Assembly: GCA_963664015.2 (NCBI GenBank)
Contig: CAXXLF010000002.1
Span: forward strand, 800,001 to 864,000
Direction of reading: 5' to 3'
DNA: 64,000 nt
Source of the DNA: Candidatus Binatia bacterium
GTDB lineage: Bacteria > Desulfobacterota > Binatia > UBA9968 > CAXXLF01
In this document: positions 4,311 through 17,509 of the stretch, one piece after another
How the letters are laid out: every line of letters starts with the position of its first letter
Numbering within the stretch: position 1 is the stretch's first letter
Notes under the pieces: generated by a model
The model's input: only the letters and a program-made list of their open reading frames with translations
What the model was told of the DNA's origin: nothing
The model's database searches: none
Made by a program: the position numbers and the translations under genes

Positions 4311-5135
4311 ATGGCACTCCAGGAAACAAATCAAGAAAAACGATTGAGCCGGGAAGAGTGTTGGGAACTGGTTAACGAGTCTGTCAATGCGGCATTGAAG
4401 CAAGCCTTTGAACAGATCTTTACCCACCCTTTCACCCAGGAACTCAAGGATGGAACATTACCGATGGAGTGCATCCGGGGCTGGCTCCTGAACACGTATG
4501 CCTGGTCCCTTGAAATTAATATGTCGCTTCCCTACCGGTACTACCTCTTCAATCACATGCTCAATCAGAGACCAGACCTCCTGGAGCTCCTGGCAGACCG
4601 CTATGCGGACGAGTTCGTCACCCCCGTTCGAGGCGGGCATCAACGCACGCTGGACGCCTTCGGTCAGGCCATCGGCCTGGACAGAAAAACACTCCACGAA
4701 TACAAGCCCCTGGCGGCCATGAGAAGCATGCTGGATTCCACCGTCTGGGCGCTGGAAGTCAACTTGGATTTCGGCATTGGAAACACCACCGAGGAATGGT
4801 TCGGCAAGTGGTGTTGGATCTGGTACCAGAGTTTGACCAAGAACTATGGCCTCAGCGACAATGGTGCCTACTACTTCCGGCTCCATTCTGAAGCCGACAA
4901 CTTCGGTGAGCACGAGGGCGGAGAAGTGATCGGTCACGAGGTCATGGGTCATGCGGAGGGGAATCGGTATATCACCGTGCGCATGATCGAGGACGGTTTC
5001 GTAAAACCGGACGAGATCAAAGGGCTCGTCTTGCGTTCCAGCAGCGTAGAGCGTTACCTGAGTTTTCTCGATGCCGTCTATTACACCTACCATCCGGCCA
5101 AAAAGGTCGGCGAGGTTGAACAGCTCCTTCGTTAG
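4311..5135 (+). CDS. TenA/PqqC/CADD-like heme-oxygenase-fold diiron enzyme (HDO)
   Basis: N-terminal HPF, ADE...GGH, TEE and YFRLHSEAD..EH metal-ligand pattern; strong RBS. Confidence 0.7.
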   Translation: MALQETNQEKRLSREECWELVNESVNAALKQAFEQIFTHPFTQELKDGTLPMECIRGWLLNTYAWSLEINMSLPYRYYLFNHMLNQRPDLLELLADRYADEFVTPVRGGHQRTLDAFGQAIGLDRKTLHEYKPLAAMRSMLDSTVWALEVNLDFGIGNTTEEWFGKWCWIWYQSLTKNYGLSDNGAYYFRLHSEADNFGEHEGGEVIGHEVMGHAEGNRYITVRMIEDGFVKPDEIKGLVLRSSSVERYLSFLDAVYYTYHPAKKVGEVEQLLR

Positions 5136-5254: not shown

Positions 5255-5788
5255 ATGGAGGCTAAAGGTATCATTTCCGACGCGTTCGGTAGGATCAGTG
5301 AATCTCTTCACAAGGCATTATCCGACCTCAACGTGAAAGAACTCCACCGGGAACCGAACCCGCCCATCGGTTGGCTGGCCTGGCGCTTGACCCGGTCTGA
5401 CGACAGCCAGCTCTCGCGTTTGGCAGGGCTAGAGCAGACCTGGATAGCGGAAGGCTGGCACTCCCGCTTTAACTTACCGCCAAATCCTTCCGATTTCGGC
5501 CCCGGTCTCTCCCACACTCGCGAGCAGGTCGCTGCCTTTCGGGCTCCCGATGCCAAAACCCTGTTGGATTACTATGACAGGGTCATGGAGCGGTGTCGGC
5601 CCTACCTGGAGGCCCTGACGCCTCAAGAACTTGACCGCGTACTCAACGAGCCCCGTTTCCAGCCACTACCATCCGTCGCGATCCGCCTCGTGAGCATCCT
5701 GCATTCGGACACGCAAATCAGTGGGCAGATCGGCTATCTACGCAGCTTGCACCGTATTGGTGGTTGGTTTCCTAGAGAAGGCGCCTGA
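5255..5788 (+). CDS. DinB/DinB_2 family protein
   Basis: NPPIGWLAWRLTR..D, W..RF.LP, RLVSIL.SD.Q.SGQIGYLR pattern; the usual metal-binding histidines appear replaced. Confidence 0.75.
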   Translation: MEAKGIISDAFGRISESLHKALSDLNVKELHREPNPPIGWLAWRLTRSDDSQLSRLAGLEQTWIAEGWHSRFNLPPNPSDFGPGLSHTREQVAAFRAPDAKTLLDYYDRVMERCRPYLEALTPQELDRVLNEPRFQPLPSVAIRLVSILHSDTQISGQIGYLRSLHRIGGWFPREGA

Positions 5789-5843
5789 GCTGGAGTCCCC
5801 CAAGTAAAAAGAATCTCTGTTACGGAATCCTGAAAAATCCCCA

Positions 5844-6039
5844 GGGCCACGCTTCTAAAATAATGTGGCCCCTTTTCTGCTGGCTCTCTTTCGTTGACGT
5901 CTTTAAAACTCTCCTGCTGAGGCCACCTCCGGGAATTTGTCAATCCGGATTCGCCCCGGAGCGGCTCTGGGATTGGCTTTGCTCGGTGTTTTGCTACCAG
6001 GACTCAATGAATGAGCTATTTAAACGCGGCTTGCGGGCC
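5844..6039 (+). repeat. Cassette junction J3 (hairpin + degenerate tRNA-Asn 3' core + WLSFVDVFKTLLLRP stub + conserved arm)
   Basis: GGGCCAC..GTGGCCC hairpin, TGGCTCTCT at 5881, and 5929-6039 aligns to 10851-10957. Confidence 0.8.
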
Positions 6040-6302
6040 GTTAGAAAGAAAACGGCGGCCCGTTGTGGACCGCCGCATGATGAACAACCAATATACGCAA
6101 CTAGGTACAACAACAGCTTGGATAGGTTCGCAGAGAATACTCTAAGTGGCTACCCAAGCGGTTTTTTGTCACACGTGTCACCTTTTCCGTATCCATCAGA
6201 GTCCTTCGGAGTTTGAAGACCAATAACGCGTAGAACGTTTTTCCCTTCGACTGGGAAGGCTTCCATGGTTTCAGCTTGAACGAAGATGGACGATTCTGCA
6301 AT

Positions 6303-6543
6303 TCAGAAGGCCGTGAGACCGAGCCAGCCTCCCCAAGCGATGAGTAGTAGGCCAGTTCCTCTTCCGAACGCGACACCTGCGGGCATCATTTTTTCTGCGA
6401 GAACGAACAACGCGAGGCCAATGATCCAAATCAGGTTCATTACGCCCCCATAGAACATGAGGGCCATTAGAAACCAACAACAGCCCAAGCAGAATACGCC
6501 GTGCTCAATGCCCATCCTGAACGCCTCCCCGACACCAGGGCGC
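6303..6543 (-). pseudogene. C-terminal fragment of a DUF2182 metal-binding membrane protein
   Basis: RPGVGEAFRMGIEHGVFCLGCCWFLMALMFYGGVMNL..I...LAEK family motif; N-terminal part absent. Confidence 0.75.
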
Positions 6544-6559
6544 CTGGTCCGGAATCTAG

Positions 6560-7081
6560 CCCAATGAAATTCTATTACGACAACCCCAAACTCGGCCCGG
6601 ATTTCTTAAAGCGCCTCTTTGGCGAAACGGATATGACCTTTTACCGGGATTTTCGTAGCGGGACGGACTGGCTGTCCCGAGGTAGGATTGCCGTATGCTT
6701 TTTGCAGTGGTATAAGCAGAGCCAGGAGCCAGGGGCTTCCAGTGGACCAGTTTGGAACCATGAAAGAAGGTGCGGCCCTTGTTTCCTTTCATGGTAGTTT
6801 AGCCCTCGTAAATAAAGCTCCCCACCCAAACGCGGCCAAGGTCTTCATCAACTGTTTTCTCTCCCGGGAGGGGGCAGATTGCCCTGCAGAAGGCGTTAGC
6901 TAATTTAGGGGATGACCCTCCGAATTCCCTACGCATCGAAATCCCAAAGGACTCTGGTCCACTCATAAGGCGCAGGATGAAGCGGGGAACGTATATAGAT
7001 CTGGAATCCGGCGGAGGAGTCGATAACAAGCCTCCCTTGAGGATCTTAAATGATATCCTGGTAAAGATGAATAAGAGATAA
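6560..7081 (+). pseudogene. C-terminal half of an ABC solute-binding protein, frameshifted
   Basis: Pieces in different frames: FYYDNPKLGPDFLKRLF...TDWLSRG, KAPHPNAAKVFINCFLSREG, NSLRIEIPKD; no N-terminus. Confidence 0.75.
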
Positions 7082-7208
7082 CGGTCCGGTCGAATTTGTC
7101 AGCCACGTATCAACGGAGATGGAGTAACACCGGTCGGCGACAAACATCCTAAGGGTGGACAAGCGAGACCTCGGGTAATCCCGATACCTCGAAGTGGAGG
7201 GGAAGCAT

Positions 7209-8381
7209 ATGGAGCGTAAAAATTCCGAAGGAACCCAGGCACAGTTTAAATACCAACAGTTCATAGAAGGCGAGGGCATACCCATTCATAGGGGGATCTC
7301 GGGGGTCGATGACGTTACCGCACTTCCGCGCCGACCCTGGGCTCGAACAGGCGGCCTGGGAACCTTCATCGAACTGACGAGCACCTTCCAATCGGAGCGC
7401 GGCATGTTCGTGTGTGAGATTCCCGGCGGCAAAACACTGGAAGTTCAGCACCACCTTTACGAACAATTGACGCTCATCCTGGAGGGTCGAGGAGCCACCG
7501 AGATCTGGCAAGAGAATGGGCCCAAGCAAATGTTCGAGTGGGGGCCAGGAAGCCTTTTCGCTCCACCGAAAAACACCTACTACCGGCTACACAACGGTGG
7601 ACCGGAACCCGTGGTTTTTTTCGCGATCACCACCGCACCGAGGATCATAAACGGTTTAAACGAGGTCGATTTCGTCTTCAACTGCAAGCATAACTTCACA
7701 GATCTTTACAATGGCCAGGAGGATTATTTCAACCAGACGCAAGATCGCGTTACAGGAGGACGTTACAATACCACCACCTGGTACACGAATTTCATTAGTG
7801 ATGTGAATCGGGAGAACGTAGACGCCCACGAGCAAAAGGTGGCAGGCGGTCAGCTTACAGGCTACCGGATGGCCGGACAGTTCCCAACGGGCCATATTTC
7901 CGAATGGCCGATGGGCAGATACCACAAGGCCCATTACCACCGCCCCGGCGCCGTCCTCGTGGGCCTTAAAGGTAAAGGCTACGTCAACCTGTGGCCCAAG
8001 GAGTTGGGAATCCACCCATGGCAGGACGGACACGGGGACAAGGTCGTCCTGGTCCAATGGGGAGCGAACAGCATTTACAGCCCTCCGGACGGCTGGTTCC
8101 ACCAGCACATGAGCACGGGCAAGGTGCCCGCGCGCCATGTGGCATGCTACGGCGGGACCAACCCGCTTGCATGGACTCGGGATCCAGATGGAAGCAACGT
8201 GATGATTCCTGTGCGCGAGGGAGGGCAGCTTATTGACTATGAAGACGAGGATCCGGAGGTCCGGCGGTACTTTACCGATGCCAACGGGAGAGAAGGCGTG
8301 AAATGCGCGATGCCACAGGTCAAGTTCCGTACCGATCCACTTCCTCCTGTAGCCCTCGCCAGACTCGGGATTCGGGGGTAG
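7209..8381 (+). CDS. Bicupin protein (gentisate 1,2-dioxygenase-like superfamily, substrate unknown)
   Basis: Two cupin motifs: HHLYE...G.G.T and YHKAHYH.PG...PPDGWFHQH. Confidence 0.75.
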   Translation: MERKNSEGTQAQFKYQQFIEGEGIPIHRGISGVDDVTALPRRPWARTGGLGTFIELTSTFQSERGMFVCEIPGGKTLEVQHHLYEQLTLILEGRGATEIWQENGPKQMFEWGPGSLFAPPKNTYYRLHNGGPEPVVFFAITTAPRIINGLNEVDFVFNCKHNFTDLYNGQEDYFNQTQDRVTGGRYNTTTWYTNFISDVNRENVDAHEQKVAGGQLTGYRMAGQFPTGHISEWPMGRYHKAHYHRPGAVLVGLKGKGYVNLWPKELGIHPWQDGHGDKVVLVQWGANSIYSPPDGWFHQHMSTGKVPARHVACYGGTNPLAWTRDPDGSNVMIPVREGGQLIDYEDEDPEVRRYFTDANGREGVKCAMPQVKFRTDPLPPVALARLGIRG

Positions 8382-8567
8382 GTTCTCCGCTCACATGGAT
8401 AATTTCTTGGACTTCCTGTTGACCCTATCAAGGGAAACCACATGGGCGCGATCTTAGGAATCGGATGCAACCACACGCTGCAACAGGCCTCGGGCATGGA
8501 TCGTTCGAGATATTTGCTTATCCGTCCTCGTCTTTAGAAATAACTCCGCCCGAATGCCTCGTTTTTA

Positions 8568-9710
8568 TCACAATGGGGTTCTGGACCCGGGGAAGGTGAT
8601 AATTTGGTTTTTTTCCGGATCGCGGACAAGAGCCATAGGCTCGCCTCCTCGCTCGACAATCTCGATCTGCTCGCGAAGGAGCTTTCGATACATCGTGATT
8701 CCCTCGTCCGTTGCACCTAGATTCTCCTTGCTCCGATCGAAGATACTTCCCTGAGTTTCCCAGGCCATGAAGTCCTGAGCGTGGAACAAGGTCATATCGT
8801 ACTCGCCTTCCGGAGTCCTCAGGTCCCAACGGATGACACGCGGCTCTTCGGGTTGTTCCACAACCCGACCGTCTTTGGAGGGTTTGAACACCATGAGATA
8901 GATCTGGGTATGGGTGTCGTCAATCGGTATACGCCAGTGCAGTGCCTCGGAAGGTCCCTTTGGAATCCGGAGGATATTAGGGAAAACAAGAGGTGGACGT
9001 ATTTCAATCTCCGGCTTGTCTCCGCCATACCTGCAGCTTTTCGTGATCCCCCATTCACAGTGTTCCCAGTCGTATTCCTCTATGGGCCGGTAGTAATACT
9101 CTCCTCCACTAAGACCTTTTTCGTGAAAGGTATGGCCGTGAAGGTAGTAAGTATGAATCGTGTCCACCGAATTCTCCATGGCCTGCAGCCAGTTGCAGTT
9201 GAGCACCGGGTCCACTTCGATCAAACGCGTTCCATCTGTCCTGGCGATCACATCCCAACGGGGTAGCAGCGGTTTTTTCTCAGGGGGCCCCATGTAGACA
9301 AAGATCATTCCGCACAGGCTCTCCAACGGATAGCTTGGATGACATATCTTGTGTTTGAATTCCGGATTGTTCTCGAAGGGCTGCTCGATACATTTCCCTT
9401 GAGCATCGTATTTCCAACCATGGTAAGGACATCGAATCCCGTCATCTTCCACGAAACCATAGTATAAGGATGTCCCCCTGTGAGAGCAGTGTTCGGCAAC
9501 GCAACCGTACTGAACCGCCTTCTCACCATTCTCTGTCGGGAGGCGAAAGACGACCAGTTCTTCACCCATGATCTGAACACGTTTCTTGGGGTTCTCCTTG
9601 GTAAGATCACTGACCAGGCAGATCGGATGCCAATAACGGCGCAATAATCTACCGCTAGGTGTATCAGGACCAATGCGGGTCAACATTTCATTCACTTCTT
9701 GATTAAGCAT
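8568..9710 (-). CDS. Rieske non-heme iron oxygenase alpha subunit (phthalate 4,5-dioxygenase/LigX-like)
   Basis: CSHRG...CPYHGW Rieske ligands, ENSVDTIHTYYLH iron ligands, QD.MAWETQG. Confidence 0.88.
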   Translation of the reverse strand: MLNQEVNEMLTRIGPDTPSGRLLRRYWHPICLVSDLTKENPKKRVQIMGEELVVFRLPTENGEKAVQYGCVAEHCSHRGTSLYYGFVEDDGIRCPYHGWKYDAQGKCIEQPFENNPEFKHKICHPSYPLESLCGMIFVYMGPPEKKPLLPRWDVIARTDGTRLIEVDPVLNCNWLQAMENSVDTIHTYYLHGHTFHEKGLSGGEYYYRPIEEYDWEHCEWGITKSCRYGGDKPEIEIRPPLVFPNILRIPKGPSEALHWRIPIDDTHTQIYLMVFKPSKDGRVVEQPEEPRVIRWDLRTPEGEYDMTLFHAQDFMAWETQGSIFDRSKENLGATDEGITMYRKLLREQIEIVERGGEPMALVRDPEKNQIITFPGSRTPL

Positions 9711-10032
9711 GCCTCACCCTCCTCTCGTGCAAAACGCTTCTCTCATCACGTTTATATAAAAGACGCGATATTATACCAGCAGTAGAACAATGCCATAAAC
9801 CGGCGGGGATTTTCCCACTGTGCCAAGTGTTTGTCAAGCATCCCATTGATTGGGTGTGAGGCTGTGAACATTTGATAAATGCAACGACTCTAAAGTATCA
9901 GAGGAGACCATAGGCTGAAGGCCGCGTGTCCATTTTCCCAGCGCGCTTCCTCATGTCATCAGTCGAGGAAATCAAGGACAGCCATATATAGAGATAAGGG
10001 CAACTACCGTCAGTAGGCTTAGGCTTTTCAAT

Positions 10033-10362
10033 CTAAACAAAATCGACTTCGTTTTCAGCCAGTGTTTTATCTCGCCTCAATTTACGAAACTTTGCATCAC
10101 TCTGGCGCCATTCGTCATCACTCGCACGTAGCTCGGCCAACGCTTCATCGGGCTGGCGCTTCGTGCCACCATCATTCGGGCGCTCTTTACCATCATTCGG
10201 ACGTACCTCAGTCGACACCTTATCGAGCTGGCGCTTCGTGTTGGACTTACTCGCGGTGCTCTGGGTAGTCGGGGCACTCGGGGAGGTCGCGCTGGTAGAG
10301 CAAGCGACAGCCCCGATTAATAGGCCGAAAAGCACTAAAACATCAAGATTACGCATGATCAC
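10033..10362 (-). CDS. Putative lipoprotein with short internal repeats, possibly truncated
   Basis: Signal peptide with AVAC lipobox, Ser/Thr-rich linker, RPNDG twice and TKRQ(L/P)D twice. Confidence 0.45.
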   Translation of the reverse strand: MIMRNLDVLVLFGLLIGAVACSTSATSPSAPTTQSTASKSNTKRQLDKVSTEVRPNDGKERPNDGGTKRQPDEALAELRASDDEWRQSDAKFRKLRRDKTLAENEVDFV

Positions 10363-10680
10363 TCAGGTCCAATGATAGATAGACCCTAAGGAGAAATCAA
10401 TTGTGATCCATGCCCTACCTTGTAAGTAAACGATATCGGAACCGAGGGTTTTATGTCAATCCGAGTTGGGATTTCGTGAAACCTGAACAATCCCCTGTAA
10501 GACAATAGGTTATAGGTAACAAGAGGGGATTCCATTTGGCCTAAAAGACGGAGAATTGACATGTTTTTGATGGGATTACTGGTAGTGTTGAGCATGTTCT
10601 TCGCCCCGGAGGCAATCCGTAAGAATCACCATCAAAACTTTCACAATTACAGTAAATGTGGATGAAATACTGCGGCAGAT

Positions 10681-10957
10681 AAAAGGCCGTGCTTCAAAAG
10701 AAACACGGCCTTTTTAGAACTGGCTCCCCTTCGTGGACGCATTTCGAACCCTATTGCTCAGGCCAACGCCTGAGATAGAAGAGCTCTTCCGCGATCTTAG
10801 AAAATCAGGTTAGATAGTTCCAAACGAACAGTAAGGGCGGCCCAGGAGGGTCGGGAAATTGTTAAATCTAGTTAGACCGGAGCTGCTCTGGGCTTAAATT
10901 TGCTCGCTATTGGACCCCAGGATCAATTGTCCCGTTAATTAAATGCGTCTTACGGCC
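10681..10957 (+). repeat. Cassette junction J2 (best-preserved copy)
   Basis: AAAAGGCCGTG..CACGGCCTTTTT hairpin, TGGCTCCCC at 10721, stub WLPFVDAFRTLLLRPTPEIEELFRDLRKSG* (10721-10813), arm 10851-10957. Confidence 0.85.
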
Positions 10958-11010
10958 TAGCGACAATCCGTGAATCTCACCGAGATAGACAACAACCACA
11001 TCTTCAGGCG

Positions 11011-12762
11011 CTAATCCCCGGCCCTTTCAATTCTTTCTGGAGGGGGTTTGAAAACGTCATATCGGCCGAGGATCTCCACTCTCATGCTAGGGTTGTGAAA
11101 ATTTGAATCCAGCTCAGCCTCATTTTTGATGGTAAGCAGATGCTCAATCTTGGCCTCCATATCTTTACCCGAGGCCATATTCGCTTCGCCTAAGTCTTCG
11201 TCAACATCATAGGAACGGACCCAATCGAAACTGTAATAGGCGTCCACAAATTGAGGGTCAAGATCCATGGCTCTCGTGGCAAGGGTAATGCCTTCTCTGA
11301 ACTTCCCGCCCCAATTGGCCAGCATGGCCAGGTTCATAAGGGCATCAGCGTGGGCTTCGCGATCCACCTGTGACATCTTGATTTTCTCGATCGACTCCAT
11401 TCCTCCTTCTGTCATTGGACGAGGCGCACGAACCAGTCCGCTTTTGATAATTTCATCCATTATTTCAAGTGCCAGTATCTTGTGGCCTTCTATGGTCGGA
11501 TGGACATGGTCCAAAAACCACTCCTCCCCTGTTATACCTTCGGGGGACCTCTCCGTAATGATCGAATCAAAATCGACAACTGGGACATTCATCTCATGGC
11601 CAATATCATTGACCGAAGTACCCAAGGCAGATATCGCCCGTAATGGACATACATCCTCATCTATGGCTTTTCGGTAAGCCGCCTTTGCTTCTCCATATCT
11701 TCCCAAAGAAAAGAGGATGTCCCCTTTTAATGCGAAGGTATGAGCATACCGAGGGTCTAATATTTCAGCGTTCAATATATGAATAAGCGCTTCTTCAAAC
11801 TCTTTTTGCCGGACCAATTCCAGGGCCCATGCATAGTTTCGTATCCACTCCTCTAAAGCTGGCTTTCCTAAGTCATCTCTATGTTGTGATTTAAAGGGCG
11901 CTTCATGCCGCATTTTTGAAGCCGGGGTCACCAGAATAATCTTGGAATCAACCGATCGGGCAAGCCTGATGATTCTTGTCAGGTTAAATCTAAAATGAGC
12001 GACGACGTCCTTTTTGTGCTCCTCATCTCTTGTATAGTCGTGAGGTCCAACAGATTGGTCCAGGATCGGATTGACCTCTTTGGAAAGCTTGTGAACATAC
12101 CCTACTTTACCCTTTTCACTTGACCAATACCCGATAATATTATTCAAAAGGGAATAGATCCGTAACTTGGAGGCGAGGGTTCCAAGATCTCGTAGAACCA
12201 TTGGTAGCCCAAGTATTTTTGAATAGGTCCTTCGTTCCAGGAATTCATTATGCCCCGTGTAGACAACCACCAGGTCGGGTTCATATTGAATAAGCTCGTC
12301 CATGAGTAGCACAATCCGGTAGCTGGCATAACTGACGCCACCGGCGTTGATGACCTCCCATTGATGCTCCCGGTCTACGTAATTGAGAAAATCTTCAAGC
12401 CAGCTACAAAAAGAGGTACGGGGCGAGTACGGTCTTCCATAGATGGTGAATCCGCCTACACAAAAGACACGCAATGTATTTGCGGATTTCATCTTTGTGA
12501 ATGACTCATTAGGAAACAACTCAAGCTTTTTAGGGTGAGTAATCATAACGGGAATGTTCCCCCCGTTCTTGATGAAGACGGAGTCGGTGAAGAGCCTCTC
12601 CTGGGAGCTAAAACCGACAAACGGGTCCTGACTGCTTTCCCCTTTGGGAATATCAAAAATTGTCAAAACACCTTCCACGAGAAGAAAAAACAGCGAACAG
12701 GTAATGGCGCTAAAAGCAATGAGTTTGGGTTTTGATAGAGGATAGGGGTTTGTTGAATTCAT
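11011..12762 (-). CDS. Membrane-anchored SGNH/GDSL hydrolase-like protein with TPR repeats (SxtL-like position)
   Basis: N-terminal TM helix, CVGGFTIYG (block I), NAGG.SYAS, GHNE, DHVHP and TPR-like helices; start moved to the ATG at 12762 with an AAGGA RBS. Confidence 0.75.
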   Translation of the reverse strand: MNSTNPYPLSKPKLIAFSAITCSLFFLLVEGVLTIFDIPKGESSQDPFVGFSSQERLFTDSVFIKNGGNIPVMITHPKKLELFPNESFTKMKSANTLRVFCVGGFTIYGRPYSPRTSFCSWLEDFLNYVDREHQWEVINAGGVSYASYRIVLLMDELIQYEPDLVVVYTGHNEFLERRTYSKILGLPMVLRDLGTLASKLRIYSLLNNIIGYWSSEKGKVGYVHKLSKEVNPILDQSVGPHDYTRDEEHKKDVVAHFRFNLTRIIRLARSVDSKIILVTPASKMRHEAPFKSQHRDDLGKPALEEWIRNYAWALELVRQKEFEEALIHILNAEILDPRYAHTFALKGDILFSLGRYGEAKAAYRKAIDEDVCPLRAISALGTSVNDIGHEMNVPVVDFDSIITERSPEGITGEEWFLDHVHPTIEGHKILALEIMDEIIKSGLVRAPRPMTEGGMESIEKIKMSQVDREAHADALMNLAMLANWGGKFREGITLATRAMDLDPQFVDAYYSFDWVRSYDVDEDLGEANMASGKDMEAKIEHLLTIKNEAELDSNFHNPSMRVEILGRYDVFKPPPERIERAGD

Positions 12763-12791
12763 TGACTGAATCCTTGAAAGTAGTCGTTCAA

Positions 12792-12971
12792 TTAAAAAAG
12801 CGTATAGATAAATGGGGCTACAGCCGAACTTTGGGCGAAAATGACCAGCCCAGCGAAAAGCAAAAGGATCAAAATCATTGGCGTCAACCACCACCACTTG
12901 TGCTGCCAAAAGAACATAAGAAGTTCGCCCATGATACCCATGCGACTAGCTAAACTTTCAACAAACCGCAT
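12792..12971 (-). CDS. DUF5989 / SxtK-like small membrane protein, 59 aa (not in the ORF track)
   Basis: MRFVESLASRMGIMGELLMFFWQHKWWWLTPMILILLLFAGLVIFAQSSAVAPFIYTLF*, ending in the family APFIYTLF motif; GAGGAGG RBS. Confidence 0.88.
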   Translation of the reverse strand: MRFVESLASRMGIMGELLMFFWQHKWWWLTPMILILLLFAGLVIFAQSSAVAPFIYTLF

Positions 12972-12984
12972 GTACGTTTCCTCC

Positions 12985-14775
12985 TCAACTTAAGCCTTGA
13001 GGCTTTTCAATCACATATTCCCCCAGAGCTAGAATGTCCATTCCACTTTGGCTGAACGTCCGAAAAGCTTCCTGGGGCGTGTTGACAATCGGCTCGCCCT
13101 TCAGGTTGAAAGAGGTGTTTAGCACTATTGGAACGCCGGTAGCTTGTCCAAAGTTCTCGATCAGCCGGTAAAATTTCGGGTTCACTTCTTTCTGAACTGT
13201 CTGAAGCCTTCCTGTGCCATCCACGTGTGTGATGGCAGGGATGGCCTCCCGCTTTCCTTCCCTTACGTCCACCACATAGAGCATGAAGCGAGCTGGATAG
13301 TGCCTTGGCGCGTCGGGCAGGACAAAGTACTCCTCTGCACACTCAGCCAATACAGAGGGAGCAAAAGGACGGAATGGCTCGCGGAACTTGATCTTGACGT
13401 TAACGATATCCTTCATATCGGCACGCCTCGGATCGGCCAGAATGCTCCGATTCCCCAGCGCTCGAGGGCCCCATTCAAACCGATCCTGGAACCACCCTAC
13501 GACCTTTCCGGATTGAAGTTCTCCAACAATCCGCTCTATCAACTTCTCCTCACTGTCGAACCGCCGATAACGGATACCCTTCTCTTTCAGGAACTTTTCG
13601 ATCTCGCCAGGACCGTGCTCCTCTCCCCAGTAGGCATGCGACATAACGAACTTACGCGGCTTACCCAGAATGGCATGATGAGCATAGAGAGCTGCTCCGA
13701 TAGCCCCACCTCCGTCACCGGCTGAGAGCTGGATGTAGATTTGCTCGAAGGGGGTCTCTTCAAGAATTCGCGCGTTGGCTACGCTATTCAGAGCTACTCC
13801 ACCAGCCATACAAAGCCTCTTCACGCCAGTCTCCTCGTACACATTTCGTGCCATCCTGAGCAGAACATCCTCTGTCACAGCCTGAATACTTGCGGCAACA
13901 TCCGCATAATATTGATTTAACTTCCCCAGCTCTTCATAGTTCCCCGGCTTTTCGCCGAAGTACGAAGGATAGCCACCCGCCGGCGTGAAAAAAGGGGCTT
14001 TGGGATCTCTTGAGGGACCAAAAAGGGCCTCAAATTTTCCATTAAACGTATTCTCTGTGGAGTAATGAAAGGAAAAATAGTCCATGTTGATTTCAAAGCT
14101 GCCGTCACATGCCACCCGGATGAGTTTGTAAATTTTGTCTTGATATCTCGGCGTGCCAAAAGGGGCCATCCCCATAACCTTATATTCCCCTTCGTTTACC
14201 TCAAATCCCAGAAATGCCGTAAACGCGCTATAGAGAAGCCCTAGAGAATCGGGAAAACGAATCTCTTTGAGCAGTTTTAAATCCGTACCCTTCCCTAGTC
14301 CAAGGCTAGCCGTTGTCCACTCTCCTACTCCATCCACTGTCAGTATGGCTGCGTCCTCAAAGGGGGAACAGAAAAAAGAGCTGGCCGCGTGGGAGAGGTG
14401 GTGTTCGCTGAAGAGAATCCTGGACGGTGGCACTCTGAGCCGTGTTCGAATGAGATGCTTGATCCAGAGCTTATCTCCTAGCCAGCTGGTCATCGCCTGT
14501 CTGAAAAGGCGATGGGATCGGGGAAAGGTTTGCATGCTGGTTAAGATGAGTCGTTCAAACTTAATAAAAAGCTTCTCGAAAAAGGCTACATAGTCCAGTT
14601 CTTCCGCCCGGATTCCACCAACTCCTAGACAGAAATCAATGGCATGCTGAGGGAACTCATAGTCGTGCTTCTTGCGTGTGAACCGCTCCTCCTCGGCTGC
14701 AGCAATCAGCTGCCCGTCGCGTAGTAACGCGGCTGCGGCATCGTGGAAGTAACAGGAGATGCCTAAGATATCCAT
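12985..14775 (-). CDS. O-carbamoyltransferase (NodU/CmcH/SxtI family)
   Basis: ILGISCYFHDAAA, EEERFTR.KH, EHHLSHAAS, GEYKVMG.AP, GPRALGNRS, KFRE.FRPFAP, NTSFN. Confidence 0.92.
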   Translation of the reverse strand: MDILGISCYFHDAAAALLRDGQLIAAAEEERFTRKKHDYEFPQHAIDFCLGVGGIRAEELDYVAFFEKLFIKFERLILTSMQTFPRSHRLFRQAMTSWLGDKLWIKHLIRTRLRVPPSRILFSEHHLSHAASSFFCSPFEDAAILTVDGVGEWTTASLGLGKGTDLKLLKEIRFPDSLGLLYSAFTAFLGFEVNEGEYKVMGMAPFGTPRYQDKIYKLIRVACDGSFEINMDYFSFHYSTENTFNGKFEALFGPSRDPKAPFFTPAGGYPSYFGEKPGNYEELGKLNQYYADVAASIQAVTEDVLLRMARNVYEETGVKRLCMAGGVALNSVANARILEETPFEQIYIQLSAGDGGGAIGAALYAHHAILGKPRKFVMSHAYWGEEHGPGEIEKFLKEKGIRYRRFDSEEKLIERIVGELQSGKVVGWFQDRFEWGPRALGNRSILADPRRADMKDIVNVKIKFREPFRPFAPSVLAECAEEYFVLPDAPRHYPARFMLYVVDVREGKREAIPAITHVDGTGRLQTVQKEVNPKFYRLIENFGQATGVPIVLNTSFNLKGEPIVNTPQEAFRTFSQSGMDILALGEYVIEKPQGLS

Positions 14776-15036
14776 CAGAATTGCCTACCAGCGCGCTCTT
14801 CCGGGGTATCCTTGTTTTCCCCCCTGACCCGCCACCCCCCTTGGGCTACCATTCTTGATGGCTAGAGGGTCACAAAGCCAGCGTACTGCTAGGGCGAATG
14901 GCGCAAAAACAACGTAGTAGAAAAAGCTTAAAAGCGCTTGCGCCTGGAGGTCGCCTATCTTCTTCCCGACTCGCCTCCACCACTGCCAGAAGCTCCCCAC
15001 CGCCCCGGCTATGCTACTCCCTTCTCGTTCAGCCAT
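14774..15036 (-). pseudogene. SxtJ-like membrane protein with a +1 frameshift in a G6 run
   Basis: WQWW...IGDLQ...LLSFFYY...PFAL...DPL; removing one G at 14835-14840 restores ...GWRVRGENKDTPEERAGRQF*, whose stop overlaps the next ATG. Confidence 0.65.
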
Positions 15037-15423
15037 GAATGATTTCCATTTGTTCAGAAGTGAAAATAATAAGGAGCTCTTTTTGAGGCAAGGCCAACAA
15101 GAACCCAAGAATTCTCCTAACGCCACTTTTCATAACTATTAAGCCGGAACACCCCTGGCAAAAAATCGCCAAAGCTGTTGGGTTTCTTTTACTCTCTCAC
15201 GGAAGCCGATTTCTGGTCCCCTTGTTTAGTTTTCACTCTTCACTAGAAACTCTATAATAAATCGGCTGAGGTTACTATGAGACCCCCAATTATCACACTG
15301 GAAAGCGTTTGTCGATTTTCCCAAGGCTTCAATAACACTTCAATTATGCCCTTCAACGAGCAGACTCCATTCACCGGTTTCTTCCCTAGGGATTAGCTAG
15401 CTTGCTCGGCTTCACAATGGCAG

Positions 15424-15712
15424 GTGGAATGGTGGGACACCGAAAAAAAGGCCGCGCTTCCAAAGAAACGCAGCCTTCAATAACTGGCTTCCCTTTGTGG
15501 ACGGTTTTAGAACTCTGTGTACCGTACCACCAGTCGGGATTGCAGAGCGTCTCGGAGAGCTTGGACAAGCCGGTCTTACATGCGGAGCAGACTGATCGAT
15601 CCGAAGGCTAACGATTAAAAGAGACTGCAGCCTATTAAAAACCAATACGAAATTGTAAGTCCACCTGGATCCAAATCCAACCGTAACCCCTTCAACGAGC
15701 CGCTTGAGAGCT
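15424..15712 (+). repeat. Cassette junction J1
   Basis: AAAAAAAGGCCGCG..CGCAGCCTT hairpin, TGGCTTCCC at 15485, stub WLPFVDGFRTLCTVPPVGIAERL...* (15485-15595), patchy match to the arm. Confidence 0.8.
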
Positions 15713-15868
15713 TTCGCCCTTCTTAGAAGGCGACTACAGCTAAAATAGATTTTCCTATTAAATTCGTTCTCATCGGTGGGGCTCCGGCCCTTCTGAGCGA
15801 CACTGTAAAACACGTAACCACAGATATCGATATTGTGAATTCTCGACTTTCCCTACAATGTGGACTAC

Positions 15869-15890
15869 CATAGCTATTAGCATAGCTATG
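15869..15890. promoter_or_regulatory. Putative toxin-antitoxin autoregulation operator
   Basis: Tandem CATAGCTAT(T/G) palindromes just after a TACAAT -10 box and before the RHH antitoxin gene. Confidence 0.5.
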
Positions 15891-15905
15891 CCGAAAGGTG
15901 AAATT

Positions 15906-16139
15906 ATGAAGACGGTGCAAATGACGCTGGACGAGGATCTCGTTAAAGCAGTGGACAGGGCTGCTAAACGACTTGGCACCACTCGGTCGGGCTTCGCGCG
16001 GGACGCGCTCCGCTCGGCTCTTAAGCACGTGCACATTGCGGAATTGGAACGAAAACATCGCGAAGGGTACCAGCGCAAGCCAGTTAAGCCAGGGGAGTTC
16101 AGCAACTGGGAATTGGAACAGGCCTGGGCTGAGGAGTGA
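15906..16139 (+). CDS. Ribbon-helix-helix (CopG-like) antitoxin
   Basis: MKTVQMTLDEDLVKAVDRAAKRLGTTRSGFARDAL RHH pattern; stop overlaps the toxin start (GTGA). Confidence 0.85.
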   Translation: MKTVQMTLDEDLVKAVDRAAKRLGTTRSGFARDALRSALKHVHIAELERKHREGYQRKPVKPGEFSNWELEQAWAEE

Positions 16140-16447
16140 AGAGAGGTGAGGTTAGGTGGTACAAGGTTTCCCGGCCTGACAAGCAGAGACCGATTCTGAT
16201 CCTCACGAGGGACTCCGCTCTCGAATACCTTGGGGAGGTTACTGTAGCTCCTATCACGTCAACAATCCGAGATATTCCCTCGGAAGTCTTGTTGAGCAAA
16301 GCAGATGGCATGCCTCGGGACTGCGCTGTGAACCTTGATCACATCCAGACCGTCTCAAAGACTAAAATTAGTTCCTTGATTACAACACTCAGTCCTAGGA
16401 AGATGCTTGAGCTGCGCTCAGCCCTCACCTTTGCCCTGGGCTTTTAG
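16136..16447 (+). CDS. mazF: PemK/MazF family endoribonuclease toxin
   Basis: MKRGEV.W...DK.RP.LILTR, VAPITSTIR, VNLDHIQTV. Confidence 0.88.
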   Translation: MKRGEVRWYKVSRPDKQRPILILTRDSALEYLGEVTVAPITSTIRDIPSEVLLSKADGMPRDCAVNLDHIQTVSKTKISSLITTLSPRKMLELRSALTFALGF

Positions 16448-16593
16448 GAATCCATTCCTCGCTTGCAGAGTTGGAATAACTGATTGCTCAGCAATCGGTG
16501 CCAGGCTTCACCATCGGGAAAGTGTTAGCGAGCACGCCCGCTATGGCTCGCCCTCTCGGCGGTCTCGGAGGAGGGGATAGAATACTACGACAC

Positions 16594-16629
16594 AAAAAAG
16601 GGCCGCGCCTCTTAAGAAACGCGGCCCTT
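16594..16629 (-). terminator. tRNA-Asn terminator hairpin (junction J0)
   Basis: Minus strand AAGGGCCGCG..CGCGGCCCTTTTTT directly after the CCA end. Confidence 0.8.
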
Positions 16630-16636
16630 CCAACAC

Positions 16637-16712
16637 TGGCTCCCCGGGAGGGACTCGAACCCCCGACAAAGTGGTTAACAGCCACCTGCTCTACCAGCTG
16701 AGCTACCGGGGA
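16637..16712 (-). tRNA. tRNA-Asn (GTT)
   Basis: TCCCCGGTAGCTCAGCTGGTAGAGCAGGTGGCTGTTAACCACTTTGTCGGGGGTTCGAGTCCCTCCCGGGGAGCCA; 76 nt cloverleaf with encoded CCA. Confidence 0.97.
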
Positions 16713-16763
16713 AAATTATACGGTCAAACTGGTGAGATCCCCGCTCATTACTGCTTCAGCTCA

Positions 16764-16795
16764 ATCCTCCTGAGGCGGACCCGCCTCGGGCGGGA
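16764..16795. repeat. REP-like palindromic unit in the tRNA leader
   Basis: ATCCTCCTGAGGCGGA-CCCGCCTCGGGCGGGA tandem hairpins between a minus-strand TATAAT (16831-16836) and the tRNA. Confidence 0.45.
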
Positions 16796-16918
16796 ACTGA
16801 TCAGCGTAAGACTGAACCGGGTGTACTTAGATTATATATCAATGTATCAGCAGATTTTCCACCCATGAGCGGGAGCGAAGAAGGAGCCTAGATACCGACA
16901 CCTTACGTCTCCACTTTC

Positions 16919-17407
16919 TCAGTTTCCGCTCGTGCCAGCCCCAAGGGCCTTCAACTCCTCGATCATCTTGTCGTGGTGAGTGGCCGGCCAGTAGATTCGC
17001 TGACAGCGCCGGCACAACGAAAAATTCTCCTGGGAAGAATAGACGTAGGGTGGTACCCGGTCCTGAACAGATTCCTTAGTGATCGCTTCGAGGACCCTGT
17101 TGCACTCCACGCAGCAAGTAAACGCCTTTTCCAATGGATTCAGGTCGCAGGCATCAACGACCTGTTTCAGCTGCTCGCGAAAATGATCGCTCTTGATAAT
17201 CATGGTGTCCGGCGGATTCTTTTTCAAGATGCTGCGGTCACGGGTAAGGATCAAGCGATTTTCCTTCCGTGCTAAATGAATCAATCCATGGCCTACCAGG
17301 TGTGAACCGTAAGCGACATCCTGGCCGAGGATGCGAAGCCACCGGGCCAGCCTGCCCAACGCCTTGTCCGCAGCAAATTTTACAACTTCATCTCGATGCT
17401 TGGCCAT
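16919..17407 (-). CDS. Mut7-C RNase domain protein (DUF82)
   Basis: F.AD..LGRLARWLRILG.D, LTRDR, C..CN, C.RC.RIYW.ATH. Confidence 0.88.
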   Translation of the reverse strand: MAKHRDEVVKFAADKALGRLARWLRILGQDVAYGSHLVGHGLIHLARKENRLILTRDRSILKKNPPDTMIIKSDHFREQLKQVVDACDLNPLEKAFTCCVECNRVLEAITKESVQDRVPPYVYSSQENFSLCRRCQRIYWPATHHDKMIEELKALGAGTSGN

Positions 17408-17509
17408 AAAAGATCCATTAAATTTGCGATTTGCCAAATTTGCTAAGAACGCCACCGATGATTACCATATAACGATCTCCACGCAATTGGGAAGAGGAGC
17501 CCAGCAAAA

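Follow-up and report, generated by a model that had tools for sequence, protein, structure and literature searches.

The 3' end of a single tRNA-Asn gene in a Candidatus Binatia genome most probably carries a tandem array of three recombinase-less cassettes, left there by elements of a large serine recombinase (LSR) family. The array lies in a 64,000-nt stretch of DNA, hereafter the window (GenBank assembly GCA_963664015.2, contig CAXXLF010000002.1, positions 800,001-864,000, forward strand), of a genome, here G000, that comprises 3,514,816 bp in 2 contigs with 53.5% GC and in which the window is C2:800001-864000. Four junctions, J0 next to the tRNA, J1 and J2 between cassettes, and J3 outermost, delimit the cassettes. 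The origin of these junctions is apparent in relatives, where the LSR gene spans its own attachment site, attP, with the core TGGCTCCCC (codons W-L-P) lying 33 codons ahead of the stop; in these relatives, exchange occurs at the core, integration at tRNA-Asn splits the LSR gene, and the detached tail marks attR. A reading of the window made earlier from its letters alone (below, the sequence-only reading) had proposed that one element family inserted repeatedly and site-specifically at the tRNA-Asn 3' end, and the core-bounded exchange and differences in site occupancy among relatives that are described here bear this out.

A family of four junctions

A repeat search of the window recovers a 49-nt family with four copies, at 5841-5889, 10681-10729, 15446-15494 and 16597-16645, spaced by 4840, 4765 and 1151 nt. 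Every copy consists of a G+C-rich hairpin followed, on the plus strand, by a core like TGGCTCCCC; we refer to the hairpin side of the core as P' and to the other side as the arm (Table 1). A 96-nt junction profile, run with nhmmer against all of G000, matches exactly these four places (E 1e-17 to 2e-24), the next match, an unrelated one, having an E value of 0.64. The four-copy family is far beyond chance and is no dispersed repeat in G000, and the division of 10.8 kb into three cassettes by four homologous junctions, as originally proposed, stands. The array is not an assembly artefact either, because in public run X5, which may be the source sample, one 12,767-nt contig matches 3000-12990 at 0 differences, running through J3 and J2, and a second contig matches 14664-15947, running through J1 with no difference.

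The tRNA-Asn(GTT) is the sole tRNA in the window (ARAGORN) and the sole tRNA-Asn among the 52 tRNA/tmRNA genes of G000. Only the 9 nt of TGGCTCCCC are common to the junctions and the tRNA-Asn genes examined, with immediate divergence after them, and the mutual likeness of J1-J3 upstream of the core (in the tRNA sense) extends much further than their likeness to the tRNA. Thus, of the idea that the junctions are repeats of the tRNA 3' end, the 9 shared nt hold, but the arm is something else, namely, the displaced 3' end of an LSR gene. J2, J3 and a junction of the related genome G004 have 250-330 nt in common, with a deletion of ~80 nt in J3. In the J2 arm, conservation continues for ~200 nt past the recombinase tail, and part of this sequence (~10856-10956) is a separately dispersed repeat. 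This outer-arm repeat of ~70-100 nt, present also at 5929-6016 in J3, recurs in G001, G003 and G004 (several other loci) and has one or two more copies in G000 (C1:280573-280641).

The hairpins, which the sequence-only reading had placed at each junction, are strong in J0-J2, with compensatory stem changes among the three, but decayed in J3, where the T-run is missing as well. This assessment relies on folding energies and z-scores in place of a simple terminator scan, which flagged the J1 hairpin as the sole one among the junctions and found 15 sites where 13.4 were expected. The J3 hairpin is probably the original tRNA-Asn terminator (the B' side). As ready-made att sites, the term of the sequence-only reading, the four copies are candidates that differ in state: the J1 core has 1 mismatch and the J3 core 2, and J3 combines a decayed hairpin with the deletion in its arm.

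The arm derives from the end of a serine recombinase gene

Read on the plus strand, the core and arm encode N-W-L-P-F-V-D-x-F/Y-R-T-L..., with a stop ~33 codons past the W. Across 21 distinct copies, the entropy of the arm is 0.76, 0.51 and 1.03 bits at codon positions 1, 2 and 3, respectively, whereas the 30 nt that precede the TGG are unconserved (~1.8 bits), conservation of the arm starting where the CCA end of the tRNA would be. This codon-position pattern, together with the lack of conservation before the TGG, marks the arm as the 3'-terminal part of a gene. Differences between the J2 arm and one from G004 (G004_b) are mainly synonymous, and no start codon or ribosome-binding site is conserved ahead of the tail.

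Family databases are silent on the tail: 0 of 7 tail peptides match Pfam or NCBIfam, the ESM Atlas yields 'hypothetical protein' entries only (best score 0.89), and of 19 pattern matches in viral contigs, 0 were confirmed. A profile search of protein clusters, in contrast, returned 1,063 representatives at E<=0.001, with the motif nearly always at the extreme end of short open reading frames (ORFs) of variable length; the few long ones are fusions to truncated unrelated genes. Among the 109 database ORFs with >=30 residues ahead of the W, 13 carry LSR sequence there. Four of these proteins (P0157, P0159, P0083 and P0161) show ~100 conserved LSR residues and a linker ending in S-E-I, followed by the SEIWLPFLDTYRT... 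tail, and P0157 contains the LSR zinc-ribbon domain PF13408. A 210-aa frame with the tail in G364 was rejected as a candidate parent as it looks like a chance read-through.

Complete enzymes are found in two of the 401 Binatia genomes that form our comparison set. The LSR of G119 (536 aa) and that of G180 (a 526-aa frame) combine the Resolvase, Recombinase and zinc-ribbon domains (PF00239+PF07508+PF13408) and have N-termini of the form ..YARVSSKEQ..; the nearest solved LSRs match weakly (TP901-1, E 3.6e-7; A118, E ~2e-5). In both genomes, the contig breaks off less than ~1 kb from the start of the LSR gene. The G119 enzyme ends in ...LSEIWLPGRDSNPRPIG and the stop, reading antisense into tRNA-Asn, with the Mut7-C gene next to it as in the window. 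This junction is the attL of an integrated element, at a site orthologous to that of the window. G017 has an LSR relic that reads into tRNA-Asn at the same position; with 128 residues, it was the longest frame reading into tRNA-Asn among 12 loci before it was recognized as a relic. In the alignment, free or tandem LSR forms continue WLPFLDTYRT..., whereas integrated forms end with WLPGRDSNPRPIG or WLPGARW directly before the stop. The shared core, the attL of G119 and the switch of identity at the core in relatives (below) together support the earlier suggestion that the junctions are att sites.

The sequence-only reading had also pointed to a recombinase whose gene ends in the junction sequence. 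Such LSRs do exist in relatives, but none is present in G000, where a tblastn search for a full-length parent gene matches J1-J3 only and no relic appears at E<1. Of the 401 Binatia genomes, 3 have an LSR of this family (G180, G119 and, in part, G298), and 27 have junctions. The window itself contains no recombinase, as stated before: it has no LSR match, no tyrosine recombinase (12 PF00589 matches in G000, all outside the window) and no resolvase (1 match in G000, outside), DDE transposases not having been searched for. No gene family recurs beside junctions across genera, and the recombinase is unlinked to the array. The open-access papers and bioRxiv preprints that we searched, without their supplementary files, contain no description of this tail-core LSR family.

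Cassettes change places at the core

The clearest evidence of movement comes from an amidase cassette that is 95% identical between the tRNA-linked array of G412 and an array in G364, with neither copy containing an LSR or any other recombinase. Precisely at the core, the two copies pass from unrelated sequence to ~100% identity: the left junctions match at 100% in their P' sides and at 63% in their arms, and the right ones at 86% in their arms and at 26% in their P' sides. Such a switch is the signature of site-specific exchange.

The tRNA-Asn locus is occupied very differently in related genomes. Within genus g42, where backbone identity is 77-86%, the distance from tRNA-Asn to the shared flank is ~1.6-2.4 kb in G284, 2.5-2.9 kb in G367, 12-15 kb in G394 and ~55 kb in G412. 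From the flanking pair of TenA-like and DinB genes to tRNA-Asn, it is 10.8 kb in the window as against 22.7 kb in G004; J3 adjoins this conserved pair, which makes it the outermost scar. The GDSL gene of cassette 2 is 88% identical at the nucleotide level (83% aa) to that of G004, compared with ~70% (65% aa) for the backbone Mut7-C gene. Identical gene content among relatives, which the sequence-only reading had named as evidence against itself, is thus not what is seen (1.6-55 kb within g42 alone). Its other counter-sign, dispersal of the junction over loci other than the tRNA, is absent within G000, with four places only, but partly present elsewhere: in G364, in four genomes of family f2 and among the fusion ORFs of the databases. 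Junctions are clustered in further genomes, four in G364 and two each in G412, G394 and G180, and the genes at these clusters include an AbiEi/AbiEii pair, a GNAT gene, an acyl-CoA dehydrogenase-like gene and the amidase.

Alternative origins

The amidase cassette also bears on the alternative that survives best, namely, that the three units are a graveyard, the decayed remains of three complete LSR elements whose recombinase genes were lost later by deletion. Given its ~100% identity over long stretches, its core-bounded ends and its lack of an LSR, this cassette has moved recently without one. For the window, decay would additionally require three deletions that each stopped within ~40 nt of the core and left a clean hairpin, with no LSR relic remaining anywhere in G000 (tblastn, E<1). 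Decay in this family is suggested by database stumps of LSR C-termini joined to foreign sequence (P0083 behind an IS66 fragment, and P0161) and by the G017 relic, and the window itself has a gene fragment in cassette 3 (PpoB2) and the visibly decayed J3; nevertheless, as the origin of all three units, we consider it unlikely.

That the array could consist of ordinary tRNA islands of tyrosine (P4-like) integrases, with the junctions being diverged partial tRNA copies, appears highly improbable. In its favour, the tyrosine integrases in the other islands of G000 are convergent with tRNA-Ala, Val, Arg, Ser, Thr and with tmRNA, G412 has a 437-aa integrase that reads into tRNA-Asn and a 50-nt tRNA repeat 46 kb off, and tyrosine integrases abut the junction at loci L085 and L091. 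However, only 9 nt are common to the junctions and the tRNA where such islands typically repeat 15-50 nt, and the arm aligns with the 3' ends of LSR genes. The repeat of the G412 island is another one, 50 nt of plain tRNA sequence, and the three integrases are mutually distant, with normal ends ~10 codons ahead of the motif. The other integrases of G000 stop 70-100 nt short of their tRNAs, and their tails are unrelated. We rejected the tail as a tyrosine integrase C-terminus, the abutting integrases ending normally ahead of it; decayed copies of an intron-bearing tRNA were likewise rejected as the source of the arms, there being no intron signal in 5500-17200 (Rfam, E<=5) despite the group I introns of relatives.

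Least credible of all is an origin by homologous recombination or duplication of the tRNA terminator region, or as terminator or small-ORF modules kept by the host, to which the homologous, native-terminator-like P' hairpins of the window, the selection suggested by their compensatory stem changes and the retention of one junction beside a coxL-like gene in four f2 genomes of three genera might point, but which is contradicted by the sharp switch of identity exactly at the core, by the attL with an intact LSR at the orthologous locus, by arms that, at 54-86% identity over ~110 nt, are a poor substrate for homologous exchange, and by the lack of a conserved start codon or ribosome-binding site ahead of the tail.

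A scenario for the array

If, as appears most probable, the array is the work of LSR-family elements, a simple sequence of events could have produced it. On integration into the identical 9 nt, as seen in relatives, the LSR body stays by the tRNA (attL) and then ends in codons antisense to the tRNA, and the 33-codon tail is carried to the far end (attR). Later arrivals at the tRNA would push older units outward, so that junctions of the form tail, core, start of the next unit would pile up; the stacking of three such units in the window would leave J0 as the tRNA-proximal site, J1 and J2 between cassettes and J3 as the outermost attR, against DinB. The three units would have come without an LSR, equipped with a minimal attP (an LSR-3'-like hairpin, core and tail) and served by an LSR in trans, rather than each shedding a 1.6-kb LSR gene after arrival. 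The P' hairpins are similar both to native tRNA-Asn terminators and to the final 40 nt of the LSR body in G119; in family f1, the G001 junction matches this body at 27 of 40 positions (counted by eye). Brought by each unit beside the core, such a hairpin would terminate the tRNA transcript and insulate the cargo. The array is probably immobile at present unless an LSR arrives in trans: because G000 has no such LSR and the cores of J1 and J3 are mutated, it would now be fixed barring a helper element.

Several observations weigh against this scenario. The only sites that canonical LSRs recombine are attP and attB, attL not being used again, and stacking at one tRNA would need a laxity like that of the Ccr recombinases. 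The tails in the window are degenerate, J2 having 31 aa that end in KSG, J1 37 aa and J3 a truncated tail. The four P' sides carry homologous hairpins that are 52-71% identical and resemble the native terminators of relatives without an array (G002), so that the units could have arisen partly by another route, and the modular signal inside f1 is weak (69% vs 60%). Junctions also occur away from tRNA-Asn, the G364 array being on a contig other than that of its tRNA-Asn, and the tyrosine integrases that abut a junction in two other phyla (L085 and L091) indicate that targeting or re-use is maybe less simple. Finally, the contigs of four public runs contain no well-supported core-to-core joint or circle; the joints listed from these contigs have sides of 20-29 nt or a fill of undefined letters, and in X1, X2 and X10, uncovered bins are no evidence of absence. 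An X2 record from a relative at ~90-95% identity connects a J0-like P' with a J3-like arm (positions 16644 and 5907, separated by 18 other letters) and may represent either a junction native to that strain or a circle.

A C-terminal tag and a wider role of tRNA-Asn

The tail is exactly 33 aa long in 108 of the 155 motif-bearing proteins, and 86 of these 108 end in AA (LAA in 43, FAA in 19 and IAA in 15), which in 84 cases is preceded by L, I, V, M, F or Q. The integrated LSR forms and the three tails of the window have no such AA ending. The end of the 33-aa tail resembles the tag encoded by the tmRNA of G000 itself, ...SLAA, which suggests, at the level of sequence, that integration may strip an ssrA-like degradation tag from the recombinase. 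The recombinase would then be short-lived while the element is free and would shed its tag on integration, by analogy with the repressor of mycobacteriophage BPs; if this is true, the tag-losing recombinase is a compact, testable switch. The degron idea is drawn from the peptide endings, and an AlphaFold2 model of P0157 (15 sequences; mean predicted local distance difference test score, pLDDT, 60.7, and <50 for residues 265-293, the tail) is uninformative on the folding of the tail, both of which count against it.

It is possible, if on balance doubtful, that in Binatia and several other phyla tRNA-Asn is the docking site of an integron-like, LSR-based gene-capture system, with rare helpers, recombinase-less cassettes and a self-limiting recombinase. 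Small cassettes with a minimal attP would be inserted, stacked and swapped at the core, while rare helper elements would bear the recombinase, the free form of which would carry the ssrA-like degron that is cut off on integration. A new unit that lands beside an old LSR body would restore its tail, and tandem junctions could, in this manner, re-arm old recombinases.

Relation to known systems

The closest known systems are the staphylococcal cassette chromosome mec (SCCmec) with the Enterococcus cassette chromosome (ECC), and the ssrA islands of Dehalococcoides; tycheposons and integrons are functional analogues only. As units without a recombinase, ccr-less 'pseudo-SCC' elements are known. 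SCCmec and ECC, which are inserted by CcrAB at the 3' end of rlmH, resemble the array in being driven by LSRs, in using one conserved site with a short core within att sites of ~50 bp, and in their variable cargo. They differ in that the target here is a tRNA gene rather than a protein gene, there is one LSR gene rather than the ccrA/ccrB pair, the LSR ORF spans attP, and the units are small (1-5 kb, one to three genes) and reside in Binatia and other environmental phyla.

Several attR sites are present in 16 of 32 ECCs, with remnants downstream, as in the window (PMC6222049). The Dehalococcoides islands, with the serine recombinase DsiB, are tandem as well, lying downstream of a single-copy tRNA-like gene with 3'-end repeats (PMC3146451). 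The dsiB gene adjoins attL, lies on the opposite strand and has an ORF overlapping attP/attL, as in the tail-core family; some units lack an integration module and were proposed to be cis-mobilizable, and the authors raise the possibility of an enzyme that is completed only when the element is circular or when the 3' fragment of another island lies beside it (PMC3146451). However, the overlapped C-terminus of DsiB is reported to be divergent in length and sequence, in contrast to the conserved 33-aa tail with its ...LAA end, and the Dehalococcoides islands use a 20-bp repeat, a tmRNA target and a six-gene integration module where we find a 9-nt core and tRNA-Asn (PMC3146451). In mycobacteriophage BPs, attP lies within the repressor gene, and integration removes 33 C-terminal residues with an ssrA-like tag; in that system, it is the repressor gene that is split, with a tyrosine integrase as recombinase, whereas here the serine recombinase gene itself is split (PMC4557955).

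In the tycheposon islands of Prochlorococcus, as in the array, successive tRNA integrations push older elements out, and these islands are cargo-rich, with partial att copies and degenerate elements (bioRxiv 10.1101/2020.12.28.424599). The same outward-pushing concept applies to how ICEs (integrative and conjugative elements) and cis-mobilizable elements (CIMEs) accrete in streptococci (PMC3146451). Both kinds of systems differ from the array in relying mostly on tyrosine recombinases and plain partial-tRNA repeats, and in usually keeping their integrase and replication modules. With integrons, the array shares small, mostly promoter-less and recombinase-less cassettes between conserved sites, and the principle that one recombinase serves many cassettes. 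The term integron-like, used in the sequence-only reading, nevertheless holds as an analogy only, no integron feature being found: there is no IntI in the window (no PF00589) and no attI, Pc promoter or folded single-strand attC, the cargo lies in either orientation, and the junction, for which no attC model was run, consists of a hairpin, a core and a 100-300-nt LSR-coding arm.

Binatia are uncultured and gene exchange among them is almost undescribed, so a mobile-element family recognizable by a 9-nt core, a 33-codon tail ending in ...LAA and insertion at tRNA-Asn offers an entry point. The tail marks more than 1,000 public protein clusters that are now annotated as hypothetical small proteins, and once such tails are recognized as scars of a recombinase, many spurious gene calls would be removed and insertion hot spots with their cargo (toxin-antitoxin, Abi, oxygenases, carbamoyltransferase) would be mapped in metagenome-assembled genomes. 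The scars would, moreover, supply natural attP/attB pairs of a new lineage of serine integrases, an enzyme class that serves genome engineering. The window is a fossil-like array, but the family is a testable system.

Cargo, flanks and other occupants of the sites

The cargo and flanking genes are included in Table 1. For cassettes 1 (ribbon-helix-helix, RHH, antitoxin and MazF) and 3 (bicupin, Rieske oxygenase and gene fragments), Pfam agrees at the domain level with the original annotation; the two ORFs of the toxin-antitoxin pair have a 4-nt overlap. Cassette 2 had been described as sxtJ/I/K/L-like, of which the carbamoyltransferase and GDSL domains are present, but the sxtJ and sxtK labels are unsupported by Pfam or NCBIfam; a 47-aa ORF in the same cassette has no Pfam or NCBIfam family. 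The 109-aa ORF of cassette 3 contains a 71-nt direct repeat at 10095-10240 (75-nt spacing, 76% identity).

Table 1. Features of the tRNA-Asn array and its flanks in the window, ordered by position
Feature	Position	Strand	Remarks
TenA/PqqC-like gene, distal flank	4311-5135	+	conserved
DinB_2 gene, distal flank	5255-5788	+	conserved; J3 repeat copy begins ~53-55 nt past stop, J3 core 93 nt past stop
J3 hairpin	5843-5872	-	-14.8 kcal/mol, z -1.8; weak, without T-run; decayed
J3 core	5881-5889	+	TGGCTCTCT; 2 mismatches
J3 arm	5881-6170	+	decayed LSR tail WLSFVDVFKTLLLRPPP..., interrupted by ~80-nt deletion; E 1.2e-6; outermost scar (attR)
Cassette 3 cargo	6303-10362	mixed	
PpoB2 copper-chaperone fragment	6303-6515	-	Pfam
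Cupin protein	7194-8381	+	Pfam
Rieske+LigXa_C oxygenase	8568-9710	-	Pfam
109-aa ORF	10033-10362	-	lipoprotein-like N-terminus; no family match
J2 P' hairpin	10681-10714	-	-24.9 kcal/mol, z -7.7; cassette 3 start in tRNA sense
J2 core	10721-10729	+	TGGCTCCCC; intact
J2 arm	10718-11010	+	LSR tail remnant 10718-10810, NWLPFVDAFRTLLLRPTPEIEELFRDLRKSG, then stop; E 3e-19
Cassette 2 cargo	11011-15126	-	GC 44-50% vs 53.5% for the genome
GDSL+TPR protein	11011-12909	-	Pfam
NodU/CmcH-type carbamoyltransferase	12985-14775	-	Pfam; N and C domains both present
113-aa ORF	14785-15126	-	no Pfam or NCBIfam match
J1 P' hairpin and T-run	15447-15478	-	-23.0 kcal/mol, z -5.3; terminator-like; cassette 2 start in tRNA sense
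J1 core	15485-15493	+	TGGCTTCCC; 1 mismatch
J1 arm	15482-15592	+	LSR tail remnant NWLPFVDGFRTLC..., 37 codons; E 1.7e-18
Cassette 1 cargo	15594-16595	+	type II toxin-antitoxin pair
RHH antitoxin	15858-16139	+	PF01402, E 2.9e-6
PemK/MazF toxin	16136-16447	+	PF02452, E 8.3e-17; no NCBIfam match
J0 P' hairpin and T-run	16596-16631	-	-27.7 kcal/mol, z -5.1; directly after tRNA; homologous to J1-J3 hairpins
J0 core	16637-16645	+	TGGCTCCCC
tRNA-Asn(GTT) and J0 core (attB/attL)	16637-16712	-	ARAGORN; Rfam tRNA, 66.6 bits; last 9 nt GGGGAGCCA = core 16637-16645
Mut7-C-like gene, proximal flank	16919-17455	-	syntenic with tRNA-Asn across the order

Rieske/LigXa_C oxygenases appear to recur in the tRNA-Asn zone, as cargo or as residents: four paralogues lie within 19 kb downstream of the tRNA-Asn of G002 (L014, G002:C1:4312000-4331999) and two in the corresponding zone of G004 (L013), all 32-42% identical to the cassette 3 oxygenase.

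In four f2 genomes from three genera (G021, G058, G070 and G086; loci L047, L081, L084 and L052, respectively), one junction is located ~100 nt upstream of a coxL/xdhA-like gene, and ~200 nt beyond it, G021 and G058 have part of a tRNA-like 3' end (T-arm, acceptor and CCA). In these syntenic f2 copies, the sequence beyond the stop is about as conserved as the tail itself, which gives no sign for or against selection on the tail in situ.

Tyrosine integrases are found at several of these sites. G000 has, outside the window, integrase frames convergent with tRNA-Ala(GGC), Val(CAC), Ala(CGC), Arg(ACG), Ser(TGA) and Thr(CGT), and also near the tmRNA; several are short fragments, and tRNA-anchored islands are many in this genome. 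At tRNA-Asn itself, G412 has a ~46-kb tyrosine-integrase island (G412:C22:553487-600790; L095, L072), in which the integrase frame enters the tRNA 3' end by 30-odd nt and the far end is a tRNA fragment with 98% identity; two LSR-type junctions lie further out than this island. In Alphaproteobacteria (L085:2740-4105) and Acidimicrobiia (L091:3341-4108), unrelated tyrosine integrases end 9-10 codons before an LSR-type core and tail, in the same strand and frame as the tail, with a tRNA-Gly(CCC) just upstream of the integrase in L085; these may represent secondary use of the scar as an attachment site. Lastly, a group I intron (RF00028, 78-95 bits), of a kind that the text of a preprint on tRNA group I introns does not mention for Asn, interrupts the anticodon loop of tRNA-Asn(GTT) in G004 (L013:18268-18534), G002 (second copy; L015:602-873), G003 (L017:785-1105) and G039 (L016:19112-19366), whereas the tRNA-Asn of the window is intron-less.

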